DNA from: Escherichia coli
GTDB taxonomy: Bacteria; Pseudomonadota; Gammaproteobacteria; Enterobacterales; Enterobacteriaceae
DNA: 64,000 nt
Reading direction: 5' to 3' (one strand)
Assembly (NCBI RefSeq): GCF_016026235.1
Contig: NZ_CP065613.1
The translations under genes were made by a program, and so were the position numbers. Positions 49,843 through 56,494 of the stretch are shown here, in pieces; positions within the stretch are counted from its first letter, which is position 1, and each line of letters begins with the position of its first letter. The notes below the pieces were generated by a model, which saw only the letters and a program-made list of their open reading frames with translations, did no database searches and had not been told where the DNA came from.

Positions 49843-51268
49843 TAATGCCGATCAGTTAAGGATCAGTTGACCGATCCAGTGGCTGTGTAAGAATCCGGAA
49901 ACGCTCACTTGTTTCCGGATTTTTTTATGCACATTGGACAGGCTCTTGATCTGGTATCCCGTTACGATTCTCTGCGTAACCCACTGACTTCTCTGGGGGA
50001 TTACCTCGACCCCGAACTCATCTCTCGTTGCCTTGCCGAATCAGGTACTGTAACGCTACGCAAGCGCCGTCTTCCCCTCGAAATGATGGTCTGGTGTATT
50101 GTTGGCATGGCGCTTGAGCGTAAAGAACCTCTTCACCAGATTGTGAATCGCCTGGACATCATGCTGCCGGGCAATCGCCCCTTCGTTGCCCCCAGTGCCG
50201 TTATTCAGGCCCGCCAGCGCCTGGGAAGTGAGGCTGTCCGCCGCGTGTTCACGAAAACAGCGCAGCTCTGGCATAACGCCACGCCGCATCCGCACTGGTG
50301 CGGCCTGACCCTGCTGGCCATCGATGGTGTGTTCTGGCGCACACCGGATACACCAGAGAACGATGCAGCCTTCCCCCGCCAGACACATGCCGGGAACCCG
50401 GCGCTCTACCCGCAGGTCAAAATGGTCTGCCAGATGGAACTGACCAGCCATCTGCTGACGGCTGCAGCCTTCGGCACGATGAAGAACAGCGAAAATGAGC
50501 TTGCTGAGCAACTTATAGAACAAACCGGCGATAACACTCTGACGTTAATGGATAAAGGTTATTACTCACTGGGACTGTTAAATGCCTGGAGCCTGGCGGG
50601 AGAACACCGCCACTGGATGATACCTCTCAGAAAGGGAGCGCAATATGAAGAGCTCAGAAAACTGGGTAAAGGCGATCATCTGGTGAAGCTGAAAACCAGC
50701 CCGCAGGCACGAAAAAAGTGGCCGGGACTGGGAAATGAAGTGACAGCCCGCCTGCTGACCGTGACGCGCAAAGGAAAAGTCTGCCATCTGCTGACGTCGA
50801 TGACGGACGCCATGCGCTTCCCCGGAGGAGAAATGGCGGATCTGTACAGTCATCGCTGGGAAATCGAACTGGGATACAGGGAGATAAAACAGACGATGCA
50901 ACTGAGCAGGCTGACGCTGAGAAGTAAAAAGCCGGAGCTTGTGGAGCAAGAGCTGTGGGGTGTCTTACTGGCTTATAATCTGGTGAGATATCAGATGATT
51001 AAAATGGCGGAACATCTGAAAGGTTACTGGCCGAATCAACTGAGTTTCTCAGAATCATGCGGAATGGTGATGAGAATGCTGATGACATTGCAGGGCGCTT
51101 CACCGGGACGTATACCGGAGCTGATGCGCGATCTTGCAAGTATGGGACAACTTGTGAAATTACCGACGAGAAGGGGAAGGGCCTTCCCGAGAGTGGTAAA
51201 GGAGAGGCCCTGGAAATACCCCACAGCCCCGAAAAAGAGCCAGTCAGTTGCTTAACTGACTGGCATTA
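49843..51268 (+). mobile_element. IS4 insertion sequence (1426 bp)
   Basis: Terminal inverted repeats TAATGCCGATCAGTTAAG / CTTAACTGACTGGCATTA; perfect 12-bp direct repeat CACCTTCTGCTG at 49831-49842 and 51269-51280. Confidence 0.93.
49927..51255 (+). CDS. insG: IS4 transposase
   Basis: [34 protein letters not shown]... (442 aa, DDE type) inside track ORF 49909..51255. Confidence 0.93.
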
Positions 51269-51604
51269 CACCTTCTGCTGACCGTTTTCGATGTACAAAC
51301 CGAGCGGCGCATAGCTTTCATCATAGATGCCGCCGTTCATCGCCATCTGCACCTGACCCTGACTATTCATATCCGCCAGCAGAGCATGTAACGTTCCCCA
51401 CGCTTCGCCATTAGCTTTTTGCCAGTACATTTTCACCCGCTCTGTTTGAGGATTAACGGTATACGCCTGTACGGTCAGCGTCGGATCTGAGAGTGCGCAA
51501 TCATCAGCGGCAACAGCAAACAAGGGAAGTAAGGTGAGGGTGAGAAAAATCTGTTTGAGATTCAAGGTGATCATTCCTTTACCAATGAGTAGCCGATGCG
51601 CCAT
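51266..51604 (-). pseudogene. yigE: yigE N-terminal fragment (signal peptide + first ~110 codons)
   Basis: Track ORF MAHRLLIGKGMITLNLKQIFLTLTLLPLFAVAADDCALS...; stops two codons into the IS4 end. Confidence 0.8.
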
Positions 51605-51973
51605 TATAGGTCCTGGATGTTGGATTTTTTTATCCTGTTAGCGACCTTGACGAGTACCAAAAAGCGCGAAGTTCAACTATTGTTCTGTGGTGTTCTGTTG
51701 CGTGTTGACGGCAAAATTTTGCTGGCGTAACATGCGCGCACGATCACTCTAAGAGGACATTCGCCTTGGACACACCCAGTAGATACTGGCTCACTATCCT
51801 GTCATCCAGGATCAACTCCTAAGGCTATCCCTTTTTGCTGATAGCCTTAGCGGTTGTCAGCGACCTCAATTTTTCCCGTCGCGCTGAGTCAGGCTGTTTA
51901 ATGGTCTGAAACCCAATTTGTTTCTGTGTGCCCACCGAACTGTCCGATATTTTAAGCATTGGGAGTCCCGGTC

Positions 51974-52924
51974 ATGCTGAGCGCATTTCAACTGGAAAAT
52001 AACCGACTGACCCGGCTGGAAGTCGAAGAGTCACAACCCCTTGTAAATGCAGTATGGATTGATCTTGTCGAACCGGACGACGACGAGCGACTGCGCGTAC
52101 AATCTGAACTTGGCCAGAGCCTGGCAACCCGCCCGGAACTGGAAGACATCGAAGCATCGGCACGTTTCTTTGAAGACGACGACGGCCTGCATATTCACTC
52201 CTTCTTCTTCTTTGAAGATGCGGAAGATCACGCCGGTAACTCCACTGTGGCATTTACCATCCGTGATGGTCGTCTGTTTACTCTGCGTGAGCGTGAACTG
52301 CCCGCTTTTCGTCTGTATCGTATGCGTGCCCGTAGCCAGTCGATGGTAGACGGTAACGCCTACGAGCTGCTGCTGGATCTGTTCGAAACCAAAATCGAAC
52401 AGTTGGCAGATGAAATTGAAAATATCTATAGCGACCTGGAGCAGTTGAGCCGGGTGATTATGGAAGGGCATCAGGGCGATGAGTACGACGAGGCGCTCTC
52501 CACTCTGGCGGAACTGGAAGATATCGGCTGGAAAGTTCGCCTGTGTCTGATGGATACCCAGCGCGCGCTCAACTTCCTGGTGCGTAAAGCGCGTTTACCG
52601 GGTGGGCAACTGGAGCAGGCGCGTGAAATCCTGCGAGATATCGAATCCCTGCTGCCGCATAACGAATCCCTGTTCCAGAAGGTGAACTTCCTGATGCAGG
52701 CGGCGATGGGTTTTATCAACATCGAGCAGAACCGCATCATCAAAATCTTCTCGGTGGTATCCGTGGTATTCCTGCCGCCGACGCTCGTTGCTTCCAGCTA
52801 TGGGATGAACTTTGAGTTTATGCCAGAACTGAAGTGGAGTTTCGGCTACCCAGGCGCGATTATCTTTATGATCCTCGCGGGCCTGGCACCGTATCTGTAC
52901 TTTAAGCGCAAGAACTGGCTGTAA
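51974..52924 (+). CDS. corA: Mg2+/Co2+ transporter CorA
   Basis: ATG at 51974 inside track ORF 51959..52924; [20 protein letters not shown]...; GMN motif and C-terminal TM pair; 316 aa. Confidence 0.95.
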
Positions 52925-52931
52925 TATGAGT

Positions 52932-52968
52932 GCCGGATAAAGCTATTTTTTTATCCGGCTTATTTCTA
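52932..52968. terminator. bidirectional hairpin terminator (corA / downstream cassette)
   Basis: GCCGGATAAAGCTATTTTTTTATCCGGC followed by T-rich tract; sits between corA stop and the stop of the 159-aa minus-strand ORF. Confidence 0.7.
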
Positions 52969-52977
52969 AAAATTGTC

Positions 52978-53457
52978 TTATTTAAAGTCATGCGGATTGA
53001 AAACTCGCTCTATTTTATTTTCTTGTGTTAATTGATACTCAGTAAAATCGTTAATACCAATATGAGTGTTACGATAAGGGTATTCATTAATAACCATTAA
53101 GTAATTTTTCACGATGCAATTATCATTGCTCTTAATTGTCGGGAAACAGTAGAGATCTTCATACGGCCCTTCGATATATTTTTTATAGTCAGTGAAGCCA
53201 TTACCGATATCAATGACATACCAGGTATGCCAACTACCTTCTGGTAGGGGATGTTGATTTTTAATTTCATTCTGATGCTTCAGATACCAATTTATTTTAT
53301 CGCTGTCAGTCCATGGCAGATGATCAACGACCAGAAAGACTGAATTGCCAGCATCAGAGTATGTATACAAAATCTGTACAGGACGCAATGTCCATAAATT
53401 ATAGATGCAGCATAGAAGAAATAAACATAATATAATTTTCTGGAGTTTGCTTTTCAT
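52978..53457 (-). CDS. hypothetical signal-anchored/exported protein (159 aa), second gene of corA-adjacent cassette
   Basis: Track ORF; N-terminal hydrophobic segment MKSKLQKIILCLFLLCCIYNLW; start overlaps upstream ORF stop (ATGA at 53454-53457); AT-rich codon usage. Confidence 0.7.
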   Translation of the reverse strand: MKSKLQKIILCLFLLCCIYNLWTLRPVQILYTYSDAGNSVFLVVDHLPWTDSDKINWYLKHQNEIKNQHPLPEGSWHTWYVIDIGNGFTDYKKYIEGPYEDLYCFPTIKSNDNCIVKNYLMVINEYPYRNTHIGINDFTEYQLTQENKIERVFNPHDFK

Positions 53458-54308
53458 AGATAATTTTCGATTCTTTCGATAGTGTTAAAATTGGTGAAAA
53501 AAGGTTTGAAAGCAAAGTCTTTATGCCGTTGTAAAAAGAACCATATGCGAAAAAATCTATATTTGCTGTAAGTCTTGTTTTTGATATCAGTTACATCAAG
53601 ACCGAAGTGGTCCTGTGCTACAAAATGAATTGTTGCACTCCATCCTATAGCGTATTTTTGAAAACTTAAAAGAGATATTTTTTGAGCTGAAATATCATGA
53701 ACACTGATTCCTAAGCCATTAAAACTGTCCTCGAAGTCATTAAATTTATTTAGTCTTGATGAAAGTAATTTGGTTTTAATGCTTTGCAGGATAAGAGGTT
53801 GGTATCCTGTCGAGGGAGTTGAATTAATGCCATTTTCGATACATTCTTTGATTATTCGTATTGGACTATTATAACCATATTTATTTATTTTTTCATGAAA
53901 AGATAAATTTAATTGTTGGCTATGAAAATTGCTGCCATTTCCATATCTAAAATGTTCAATCAGATCTTCGATAAGTGTTTTATATTGTCCAAAAAAGGAA
54001 AGCATTTTTGCTAGTTCTTTCATTTCTGCAAATAAAATATCAGTGCATTCACGTTGTGATATTTTTGTTCCGGAACTTGAGGCACTAAAAGCAACATTAA
54101 TAGAACCTGGGCCAGGGAAATGGTATTTAATAAGTCTGTAAGGATCAACTTTTGCTGAGATATCGCTTAGGCCGAGTGAGAGAAAGTCTTGTTCTACCAT
54201 ATCACCATATTGCATATCATCAGCAGAAAAATCATCGAATAAACTAATAGTTTCGAAAAGTGTACAGGGAATATTAATTGGCGGAAGTAATATGTTATTC
54301 ATTTGCAT
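53454..54308 (-). CDS. hypothetical protein (284 aa), first gene of corA-adjacent cassette
   Basis: Track ORF MQMNNILLPPINIPCTLFETISLFDDFSADDMQYGDMVEQDF...; no TM segment or catalytic motif I can assign by eye; AT-rich. Confidence 0.7.
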   Translation of the reverse strand: MQMNNILLPPINIPCTLFETISLFDDFSADDMQYGDMVEQDFLSLGLSDISAKVDPYRLIKYHFPGPGSINVAFSASSSGTKISQRECTDILFAEMKELAKMLSFFGQYKTLIEDLIEHFRYGNGSNFHSQQLNLSFHEKINKYGYNSPIRIIKECIENGINSTPSTGYQPLILQSIKTKLLSSRLNKFNDFEDSFNGLGISVHDISAQKISLLSFQKYAIGWSATIHFVAQDHFGLDVTDIKNKTYSKYRFFRIWFFLQRHKDFAFKPFFTNFNTIERIENYL

Positions 54309-54498
54309 TTGCCTTGGTTATATTTAAGCTCAATATCAATTCGAGAACAAATGCTAGGGTAAAAAAATATTTAAAAAAGAAGTACACTTCACATTTTTTC
54401 ATTACATCTCTGAAGAGAACCTCGTTAATGATTGGTCTTGCTCATTGTTAATAACAAAATGTTGAATTTACCGATTAGGAAACTTTTTCCTACGCGGA

Positions 54499-54635
54499 TT
54501 GCCTCCAGTTCTGGCATGAACTTTGAGTTTATGCCAGAACTGAAGTGGGGCTTCGGCTACCCTGGCGCGATTATCTTTATGATCCTCGCGGGCCTGACAC
54601 CGTATCTGTACTTTAAGCGTAAGAACTGGCTGTAA
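54499..54635 (+). pseudogene. diverged duplicate of the corA 3' end (last ~45 codons + stop)
   Basis: ~137 bp alignable by eye to 52788-52924 with roughly ten mismatches; encodes ...[40 protein letters not shown]; track ORF 54432..54635 extends it to an upstream ATG. Confidence 0.85.
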
Positions 54636-54659
54636 CTATACGATGTCGCTGTGAGTAAG

Positions 54660-55046
54660 TTAGTGTGCTGACAGCGACATTTTAGCCGAGGGAATCGCAG
54701 ATAACATAATTGTTGTGAATAATATCCATGCCACGTTGAGTTGGACGCTTAATGACTCACATCTCACCCCTTCAATTGCTGCAGAGATAATAGAAAAAAG
54801 TGTCAAACCCAATGAAATCAATACAAAGTAGATTGCCTTACATCCAGTATCTCTTATTCTTTTTGCTCCAATATTGATATTTACATAGGTATTATTAATA
54901 ACCAGAATAAAACTCAAAGCCAGGTTGATATCATTCAAAGTTATTAATATTGACCATGATGTTAATGTATAGATTATGAACTGAAAGCGTGATAAACGCT
55001 CAAGCCTGGATGGGTAGAATATATTTCTGATGGATGATTTGAACAT
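54660..55046 (-). CDS. hypothetical small inner-membrane protein (128 aa); yigF position by synteny
   Basis: Track ORF with at least three hydrophobic segments; AT-rich; lies between corA region and rarD where K-12 carries yigF/yigG. Identity not verified. Confidence 0.6.
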   Translation of the reverse strand: MFKSSIRNIFYPSRLERLSRFQFIIYTLTSWSILITLNDINLALSFILVINNTYVNINIGAKRIRDTGCKAIYFVLISLGLTLFSIISAAIEGVRCESLSVQLNVAWILFTTIMLSAIPSAKMSLSAH

Positions 55047-55245
55047 TTTTACATTGTTTTATATATATAATTGTTTTGAATATATATTACCTGAATTATG
55101 TGGTTTGCATATATATATGCAATATAGCAGTCTTTGCATTGATAACTATACAGTAGTAATTTAGAGTGTGTAAGTTTTTATTGATGGGGTATATTTTAAT
55201 TAAATATAATTGAAATGTATTTTTATTCTATAAACAATATCTTGG

Positions 55246-55560
55246 GTGAATGGATTCTATATGGGAAATGGTAACTTTTGGCAGTTGTTCTTGGGTAAAG
55301 AACCTTACAGCAAAAAATCTTATTTTGTTAAGGCATGGTTATTGTGGTGGGCTATTACCATCCTTGTTCTATTTATTTTAAGCCTGACTACGACATTAAA
55401 TTTAAGAAGTATAGGTATAGGGTTAAGTTTTGGGTTTTGTCAAATTCTTGGTAGATATACGATGTCTCTAGGATGGAGTAAGTACTGGGGAGTTTTGGGG
55501 GTATTTCCTGTAACAAATATTGTTCTTTTTCTTATCTTAATTTTTTTCAAAAAAAGATAA
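55246..55560 (+). CDS. hypothetical small membrane protein (104 aa)
   Basis: Track ORF with two clear hydrophobic helices (AWLLWWAITILVLFILSL; GVLGVFPVTNIVLFLILIFF); AT-rich; followed by hairpin GGGTAGGC...GCCTACCC. Confidence 0.5.
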   Translation: MNGFYMGNGNFWQLFLGKEPYSKKSYFVKAWLLWWAITILVLFILSLTTTLNLRSIGIGLSFGFCQILGRYTMSLGWSKYWGVLGVFPVTNIVLFLILIFFKKR

Positions 55561-55606
55561 ATAAGTCAGTGGGTAGGCTCTTTAAACGGCCTACCCATGT
55601 TAATTC

Positions 55607-56494
55607 TTAACTTTTTCTACGCTGCGTATAAATCGCATCCATCACAAAAATTGCCAGCGCCACCCAAATAAAGGCGAAAGTCACCATCTTATCGGCACCC
55701 GGTTTTTCACCATAAAACGTCACAGCCAGCAGGAACATCAGCGTCGGGCCAATGTACTGGAAAAAGCCTAACGTTGAGAGACGCAAGCGCGTGGCAGCGG
55801 CGGTAAAACACAACAGCGGTACGGTAGTGACAATACCGGCGGCGATCAGCAGTAAATTCAGCGACATCGGGTTTTGCCCCATATGGCTGGTTGAGCTGTC
55901 GGCAATAGCAAACAGGTAAATTGCCGCCACGGGCAGCAGCCACATGGTTTCGATTAACATGCCGGTTTGCGCTTCAACGGCAATCTTCTTGCGTACCAGA
56001 CCGTAGAAGGCAAAACTAAATGCTAGCCCCAGCGCGATAATAGGTAGCGAACCAAAAGTCCACAGCTGGACCAACACGCCACATATCGCCAGAATCACCG
56101 CCAGCCATTGCATCCGGCGGAATCGCTCGCCGAGGAAAATCATCCCCAGCACAATGTTCACCAGCGGGTTAATAAAGTAACCAAGGCTCGCTTCCAGCAT
56201 ATGGTGATTGTTCACCGCCCAGATAAACAGTAGCCAGTTGCCACCAATCAGCACGGCAGAGACTGCCAGCATAAAAATTTTCTGTGGCGTCTGAATCAGC
56301 GTTTTTAAATAGGACCACTGGCGGCAAATGCTCATCAGCACCACCATAAAGAAAAACGACCAGATCACGCGATGCGTCAGGATTTCATCGGCGGGCACGT
56401 AGTAAATCAACTTGAAGTACGCTGGCGCTATACCCCAAATAAAATAAGCGGCAAGAGCGAGTAATACGCCCTGCCGCGTTTGTTTTGCATCCAT
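55607..56494 (-). CDS. rarD: DMT-family transporter RarD
   Basis: 295-aa ORF MDAKQTRQGVLLALAAYFIWGIAPAYFKL... Confidence 0.92.
   Translation of the reverse strand: MDAKQTRQGVLLALAAYFIWGIAPAYFKLIYYVPADEILTHRVIWSFFFMVVLMSICRQWSYLKTLIQTPQKIFMLAVSAVLIGGNWLLFIWAVNNHHMLEASLGYFINPLVNIVLGMIFLGERFRRMQWLAVILAICGVLVQLWTFGSLPIIALGLAFSFAFYGLVRKKIAVEAQTGMLIETMWLLPVAAIYLFAIADSSTSHMGQNPMSLNLLLIAAGIVTTVPLLCFTAAATRLRLSTLGFFQYIGPTLMFLLAVTFYGEKPGADKMVTFAFIWVALAIFVMDAIYTQRRKS

Follow-up and report, generated by a model that had tools for sequence, protein, structure and literature searches.

The second corA 3' end that lies between corA and rarD in this segment of the Escherichia coli chromosome is most probably the gene's own original end, displaced downstream by a cassette that recombined into the locus and now decaying as a pseudogene remnant, a reading to which we assign a probability of about 0.88. 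The repeat, the colinear stretches, the one shared junction and the relaxed constraint are shown directly; which way the event ran, and by which recombination pathway, is what we infer. The earlier view of the fragment as more likely a recombination scar finds strong support in the other types of corA-rarD locus known from E. coli.

The repeated corA end and the cassette it flanks

The window (the whole stretch of DNA analysed here, 64,000 nucleotides) has the gene order uvrD-yigE-corA ... rarD-yigI-pldA. Intact corA occupies 51974-52924 on the plus strand, encodes 316 amino acids from the RefSeq start (the mechanical ORF begins at a TTG at 51959), matches the Pfam CorA profile with an E value of 1.7e-56 and corresponds to WP_000947159.1 in the annotation of a near-identical genome (L001). 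The 3' end of this working gene (52778-52924) recurs on the same strand at 54489-54635 as the right copy of a 147-nt direct repeat, with 91% identity and a spacing of 1711 nt, a similarity far beyond chance. The right copy holds CorA residues 269-316 plus the stop codon, which we take to be the GMN loop and TM2 preceded by the final eight residues of TM1. This confirms the duplicate corA end announced by the original prediction, with the GMN loop and the last helix in an open frame. The frame itself (54432-54635, plus strand) does have 67 codons and translates exactly as had been quoted, but it starts at a TTG and not, as had been stated, at an upstream ATG: its first in-frame ATG lies at 54459 (58 aa) and the next, at 54516 (39 aa), is the Met of the GMN motif. 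The frame is chimeric. Its first 19 codons are not corA, 14 of them being read from the plus strand of the cassette upstream region (54309-54472, colinear with genomes that carry the cassette alone) and five from a 16-nt junction filler (GATTAGGAAACTTTTT, 54473-54488) that matches neither those genomes nor corA; their reading in frame with the 48 corA codons is fortuitous.

The repeats enclose about 1.7 kb in which a DUF943 gene (52978-53457) and a DUF3289/YPO3983-family gene (53454-54308, RefSeq start 54302) are the sole genes, both on the minus strand and reading away from the fragment. These two adjacent genes have strong matches to PF06092 (E 1.4e-26) and PF11692 (E 1.5e-83), respectively, which identifies them as a DUF3289/DUF943 pair, and the latter gene also reaches 436 bits (E 3.6e-131) against TIGR03034, well over its cutoff of 156. 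Proteins of the DUF3289 family have been described as colicin-M-like toxins active in the periplasm and DUF943 proteins as their immunity partners, with toxicity and rescue shown for one DUF3289 family member and secretion through the T6SS not shown (PMC11148199). The resemblance to that toxin-immunity pair concerns the inserted cassette genes and not the corA fragment; for the E. coli copy, known here from sequence, the toxin and immunity roles are putative, and so is T6SS delivery. The cassette upstream region presumably holds the promoter of the minus-strand DUF943/DUF3289 operon. A plasmid search with the DUF3289 protein returned no near-identical plasmid copy. Its two matches at 99%, PLSDB CP061233.1 and NZ_OL790696.1, are records of 1.0 Mb and 4.8 Mb that, although filed as E. 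coli plasmids, are probably chromosome sequence, and a plasmid donor of the cassette is therefore not supported.

Immediately beyond the fragment, a plus-strand hairpin followed by T's can be read from the sequence at 54643-54683 (ATGTCGCTGT ... ACAGCGACAT); its loop of 18 nt is the reason why the terminator scan did not list it. Two further frames make up the rest of the downstream module. The first (54660-55046, minus strand, 128 aa) carries no RefSeq annotation, appears membrane-like and occupies the place of yigF in K-12. A DUF805-type identity was considered for it and set aside, as Pfam gave no matches; it is instead a distant YigG homologue (29% identity, E 1.8e-4; NF008474 at E 6.8e-6, far under cutoff). 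The second (55261-55560, plus strand; mechanical ORF from a GTG at 55246) encodes a 99-aa hypothetical protein known to RefSeq as WP_000526442.1 / WP_001330510.1. The conserved right flank is formed by rarD (55607-56494, minus strand). Scanned against Rfam, 51200-55800 yielded nothing beyond chance-level matches, well under gathering scores. On the other side of corA, a 1426-bp insertion at 49843-51268 splits yigE and is bordered on both sides by a 12-bp target duplication (CACCTTCTGCTG); its transposase ORF is presumably IS4-like. In FDAARGOS_943, a 99.9% identical strain, the insertion is absent and yigE is intact.

Structural alleles of the interval and origin of the fragment

The interval between corA and rarD (52925-55614 in the window) is replaceable, and E. 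coli has at least five structural alleles of it. In the K-12 type (A) the order is corA-yigF-yigG-rarD. Type C (e.g. L002 and L005) reads corA-DUF943-DUF3289-rarD and has no second corA end, while type D, found in about 12 genomes including MS 21-1 (L013), is devoid of the cassette and reads corA-hairpin-yigG-like ORF-99-aa hypothetical-rarD. The two remaining forms carry both the cassette and the second end (corA'): type B, that of E. coli B and BL21, is corA-cassette-corA'-yigF-yigG-rarD, and type W, that of the window, is corA-cassette-corA'-type D module-rarD. The right boundary of the variable interval falls inside rarD itself, the encoded protein ending in ...RRKS in types D and W and in ...RRTSK in types A, B and C. 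A literature search for corA together with rarD or yigF returned nothing on this locus.

The comparison set consisted of 5426 complete E. coli genomes, 2634 of which carry the cassette and 1430 the type D module. The junction and fragment, counted in genomes that cover at least 80% of a junction-plus-fragment query (all other matches being native corA only), occur in 1707 genomes (31%), about two thirds being without them; the cassette thus stands without a duplicated corA end in 927 genomes (2634 minus 1707). A single junction type was seen in the entire set, with two different downstream modules behind it. A terminator-like hairpin 3' of working corA (52932-52959, plus strand; 11-bp stem plus a T run) is common, by alignment, to the native corA genes of the window and of types B and C and absent from K-12-type genomes; it travels with the cassette, and the type C genomes, which have the cassette only, possess it as well. 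To the right of their cassette, type C genomes hold a 5' remnant of yigG and the rarD-proximal spacer of type A (4771-4924 in L002; 3956-4147 in L003), and in this lineage the cassette seems to have replaced yigF and most of yigG. A stretch of 138 nt at this position, entertained as unique sequence, proved to be the same yigG remnant and spacer. The annotation of B-type genomes marks yigG or yigF as a pseudogene interrupted by a stop codon (L004 3755-4135; L011 1849-2229; L012 2237-2617); there, the module 3' of the fragment is also decaying.

The junction in the window joins two of these alleles. In blastn comparisons, positions 51900-54488 are colinear with type C genome L002 at 92% identity, and beyond them the only match is to corA's own 3' end; a per-base view places the real end of the similarity to type C at about 54472. 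From 54489 onwards the window is colinear over 1212 nt, again at 92%, with type D strain MS 21-1, where a full corA is followed by the same hairpin and downstream genes. The hairpin at 54643-54683, lying directly 3' of full-length corA in that strain, is probably the original corA terminator. B strains have the same junction and fragment followed by K-12-type yigF-yigG, contiguous as they are in K-12. A duplicated segment thus flanks the insert, with type C sequence on its left and type D (type A in B strains) on its right, and this arrangement identifies the fragment as the recipient's original corA end. Since one junction is common to all 1707 genomes, the insertion event happened once.

The history that we propose would start from an ancestral chromosome with the type D order of corA, hairpin, yigG-like gene, hypothetical gene and rarD, into which DNA from a type C strain (corA-DUF943-DUF3289) would have recombined. 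Homology in or upstream of corA would have been used on the left side, and on the right side an illegitimate join would have been made to corA 147 nt before its stop codon. The recipient's corA would thereby have gained a new 3' end and the terminator at 52932-52959, with the cassette behind them, and the old 147-nt tail would have moved downstream, where it would by chance have stayed in frame with 19 upstream codons and produced the 67-codon ORF. The remnant would since have decayed slowly, partly refreshed by continued recombination with corA alleles, and might have offered the homology by which the downstream module was swapped (type D versus yigF-yigG), the exchange passing through the 147 bp or further right. 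The best-fitting route for the event would be homology-facilitated illegitimate recombination, with homologous pairing on the corA side and an illegitimate join on the opposite one. This process has been documented in E. coli at low frequency (PMC3240628) and has also been invoked for effector/immunity displacement in Vibrio cholerae and for Rhs loci (PMC5361080).

The details of the junction bear on this choice. Within the first 20 nt of the fragment lie five differences that are fixed in all W and B genomes examined and absent from every native allele seen. The filler and this mutated patch would fit an illegitimate join without proving it, and a simple insertion model leaves both of them (54473-54508) unaccounted for. 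A linear donor running from corA (about 147 nt before its end) to the right end of the cassette might instead have circularised and then entered by a single RecA-dependent, Campbell-type crossover within the 147 bp, which would likewise leave direct repeats and would make the junction-proximal part of the fragment donor-derived. Linear DNA entering E. coli by conjugation has been seen to take this route, and to do so more often than homology-facilitated illegitimate recombination (PMC3240628). A circular intermediate would account for the five fixed differences, the remainder of the fragment looking like ordinary E. coli corA, and could also account for the filler. Nonetheless, the corA alleles of E. 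coli type C do not have the divergent patch, no species representative has it in its corA, and the filler at 54473-54488 is unlike corA, so that we see this route as possible but rather unlikely. An exact-pattern scan for the patch (ACNCNNATTGCCTCCAGCTAYGGNATGAAYTTYGA) in 100,044 species representatives returned two contigs only and no donor species, both contigs being E. coli type-W DNA 98.7-99.1% identical to the window region. They are filed in metagenome bins labelled 'uncultured Clostridium sp.' and 'uncultured Alistipes sp.', an evident case of bin contamination.

The layout of the locus also recalls the islands that target tRNA genes, in which direct repeats flank the element, the copy next to the element completes the gene and the original end comes to lie on the far side. 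By this analogy, the two corA ends would be the attL and attR of an integrative element that inserts site-specifically at the corA 3' end and carries a replacement for it. As in such islands, 3'-end direct repeats flank the insert here and the gene stays intact. The parallel fails, however, in several respects. A Pfam search of the ORFs between the repeats found no integrase or recombinase, DUF943 and DUF3289 being the only genes in the 1.7 kb; before the right repeat come filler and a mutated patch, not a clean att core; the cassette sits at the same locus without a corA duplicate in the 927 E. coli genomes mentioned above and in Salmonella; and the one junction seen in 5426 genomes gives no sign of recurrent integration. 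Site-specific integration is accordingly regarded as extremely improbable. In the Salmonella case, S. enterica subsp. houtenae (L016 3894-7356), a DUF3289-DUF943 pair with 66% amino acid identity lies at corA-rarD with a single corA end. This speaks for ordinary flanking homology as the cassette's normal means of movement, and for the duplicated tail as the accident of one event. Two tandem DUF3289-DUF943 pairs are present at an unrelated locus in Enterobacter sp. (L017 3499-6319). As to the direction of change between E. coli alleles, type C might also derive from a B-type hybrid by deletion of corA', yigF and part of yigG, a reversal made possible by the position of the type C yigG 5' remnant exactly at the right end of the cassette.

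Coding status of the displaced end

What the displaced end could encode is a small and terminal part of CorA. The ORF matches Pfam PF01544 with an E value of 1e-9 and 38.6 bits (cutoff 27), the match being confined to profile positions 246-292 of 292; with the NCBIfam equivalog TIGR00383 it reaches 73 bits (positions 273-320 of 320), short of the cutoff of 200.75, and it aligns with the last 47 residues (305-351 of 351) of the solved Thermotoga maritima CorA structures. The cytoplasmic domain and nearly all of the pore-lining TM1 are absent. The YGMNF signature is broken in the window's copy, which reads SSSGMN (Y276S) against the native SSYGMN, and the MPEL signature has become LPEL (M283L) in common fragment alleles elsewhere. 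Judged by these alignments, the fragment would be homologous to CorA yet not a CorA transporter, and RefSeq flags an identical sequence as a pseudogene ('incomplete; missing N-terminus').

The loss of the signature tyrosine has a mutational history of its own. In the lineage of the window, AGCTAT in the fragment has changed to AGTTCT, whereas other fragments keep AGCTAT. Both changes remove mismatches from a natural quasipalindrome that surrounds the GMN codons (54503-54545), turning this near-perfect inverted repeat into a 17-bp perfect stem with a DNA hairpin MFE of -17.5 kcal/mol, as against -10.7 and -7.3 kcal/mol, and the odds that two random substitutions would perfect the hairpin are about 2.5e-4. 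The substitution, which also destroys the Tyr of YGMNF, bears what appears to be the signature of a quasipalindrome template-switch mutation (PMC7202029).

The original prediction had also raised the possibility that the fragment is expressed from a cassette-side promoter and co-assembles or interferes with native CorA pentamers. Taken further, the ORF would be translated into a single-pass membrane peptide of 39-67 aa, made of the GMN loop and TM2, that binds CorA pentamers and modulates or poisons Mg2+/Co2+ transport. It is true that the frame is open in 9 of the 9 copies aligned (the window and eight genomes), that the hydrophobic TM2 and basic C-terminus are kept and that gene callers have repeatedly deposited the ORF as a protein. 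There is, on the other hand, no consistent start, with database entries of 39, 58, 63, 65 and 67 aa, and where a small protein would show a conserved start and a ribosome-binding site, this ORF shows a TTG and five annotated starts. The ATG at 54459, the only one upstream of the GMN Met, is ATA in O157:H7. Pairing with the anti-SD sequence at the three candidate starts amounts to -2.9, +1.5 and -3.1 kcal/mol, compared with a window-wide mean of -2.2 and with -6.8 for corA and -6.6 for pldA, so that no ribosome-binding site stands clearly above background at any of the three. The cassette genes face the other way, and no sigma-70-like site was found on the plus strand between 53373 and 54880 in a scan that is weak, as it also misses the promoter of the DUF3289 operon. 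Besides missing most of the pore-lining TM1 and the whole cytoplasmic domain, the would-be peptide carries variants (Y276S in the window, M283L elsewhere) in the most conserved CorA motifs, and about two thirds of E. coli genomes do without the fragment altogether. Expression with co-assembly or interference gains no support from these observations, and a functional peptide seems very unlikely. The more specific proposal that the AT-rich cassette upstream region gives rise to a divergent or antisense transcript, yielding a GMN-loop and TM2 mini-protein that tunes or poisons CorA uptake, is one to which we attach hardly any credence.

Patterns of variation likewise separate the fragment from the working gene. 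Polymorphic sites number 5 nonsynonymous and 8 synonymous in eight fragments versus 0 and 11 in six native ends, a contrast with a Fisher p of 0.03 one-sided and 0.04 two-sided on small samples. In the 13 further genomes examined, CorA is invariant and bears the same accession, WP_000947159.1, in 13 of 13, while fragments in public records vary: M283L alters the MPEL motif in at least 1000 contigs, Y307H is present in about 900, and S289G, A305T and several premature stops occur as well. The residues L271R/P, V272I, S289G and A305T are specific to fragments. Constraint on the fragment is thus relaxed with respect to the working copy, as judged by polymorphism in small samples and by the premature stops. 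The CorA-derived part of the frame is still about 95% identical to corA, and an open frame is expected at less than 5% divergence without indels. Moreover, polymorphisms of the fragment alleles recur in native corA alleles from other genomes, a sign that recombination with native corA continues and slows the decay. Low divergence and recombination with native alleles therefore suffice to explain a frame that is open in all aligned copies, and selection, though conceivable, need not be called upon. As far as these comparisons go, the fragment has the appearance of a decaying pseudogene remnant, with nothing to suggest a working small gene.

Parallels and significance

Part of this picture was already available. 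The RefSeq/PGAP pseudogene 'CorA family divalent cation transporter; incomplete; missing N-terminus' (I6H00_RS18085 in FDAARGOS_943 and PIB26_RS22025 in E. coli B) covers exactly this 147-nt stretch, has no sequence difference and likewise lies between the YPO3983/DUF3289 gene and the downstream module. Public databases also contain the fragment many times, from both E. coli and Shigella sonnei, as a short 'magnesium transporter CorA' of 39-67 aa. To the existing pseudogene annotation, the present analysis adds the origin of the fragment, its frequency (1707/5426 complete genomes) and the signs of its decay.

The closest parallels come from the T6SS arrays of V. cholerae and from Rhs and CDI loci, where displaced 3' ends and orphan modules are left behind after effector/immunity replacement (PMC5361080). 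The locus described here shares with them a toxin/immunity module anchored in a conserved upstream gene and a resident 3' remnant shifted downstream. It departs from them in that both the anchor and the displaced piece come from a housekeeping channel gene, corA, and not from an effector, and in that no orphan immunity gene accompanies the remnant; the pathway, moreover, is deduced.

The value of these observations lies mainly in annotation: the public 'magnesium transporter CorA' records of this ORF appear to correspond to a pseudogene remnant, and what is known of CorA and of such cassettes is left unchanged. Were the mini-protein reading true, it would represent a gene fragment co-opted to regulate its parent channel in about one third of E. 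coli. More generally, the locus offers a clean natural example of an effector/immunity cassette entering a core-gene interval, in which one junction has been inherited by, or has spread into, nearly a third of complete E. coli genomes. The 147 bp left over from the event apparently let the neighbouring module be exchanged at a later time, and recombination between the two 147-bp repeats could permit the precise loss of the cassette.
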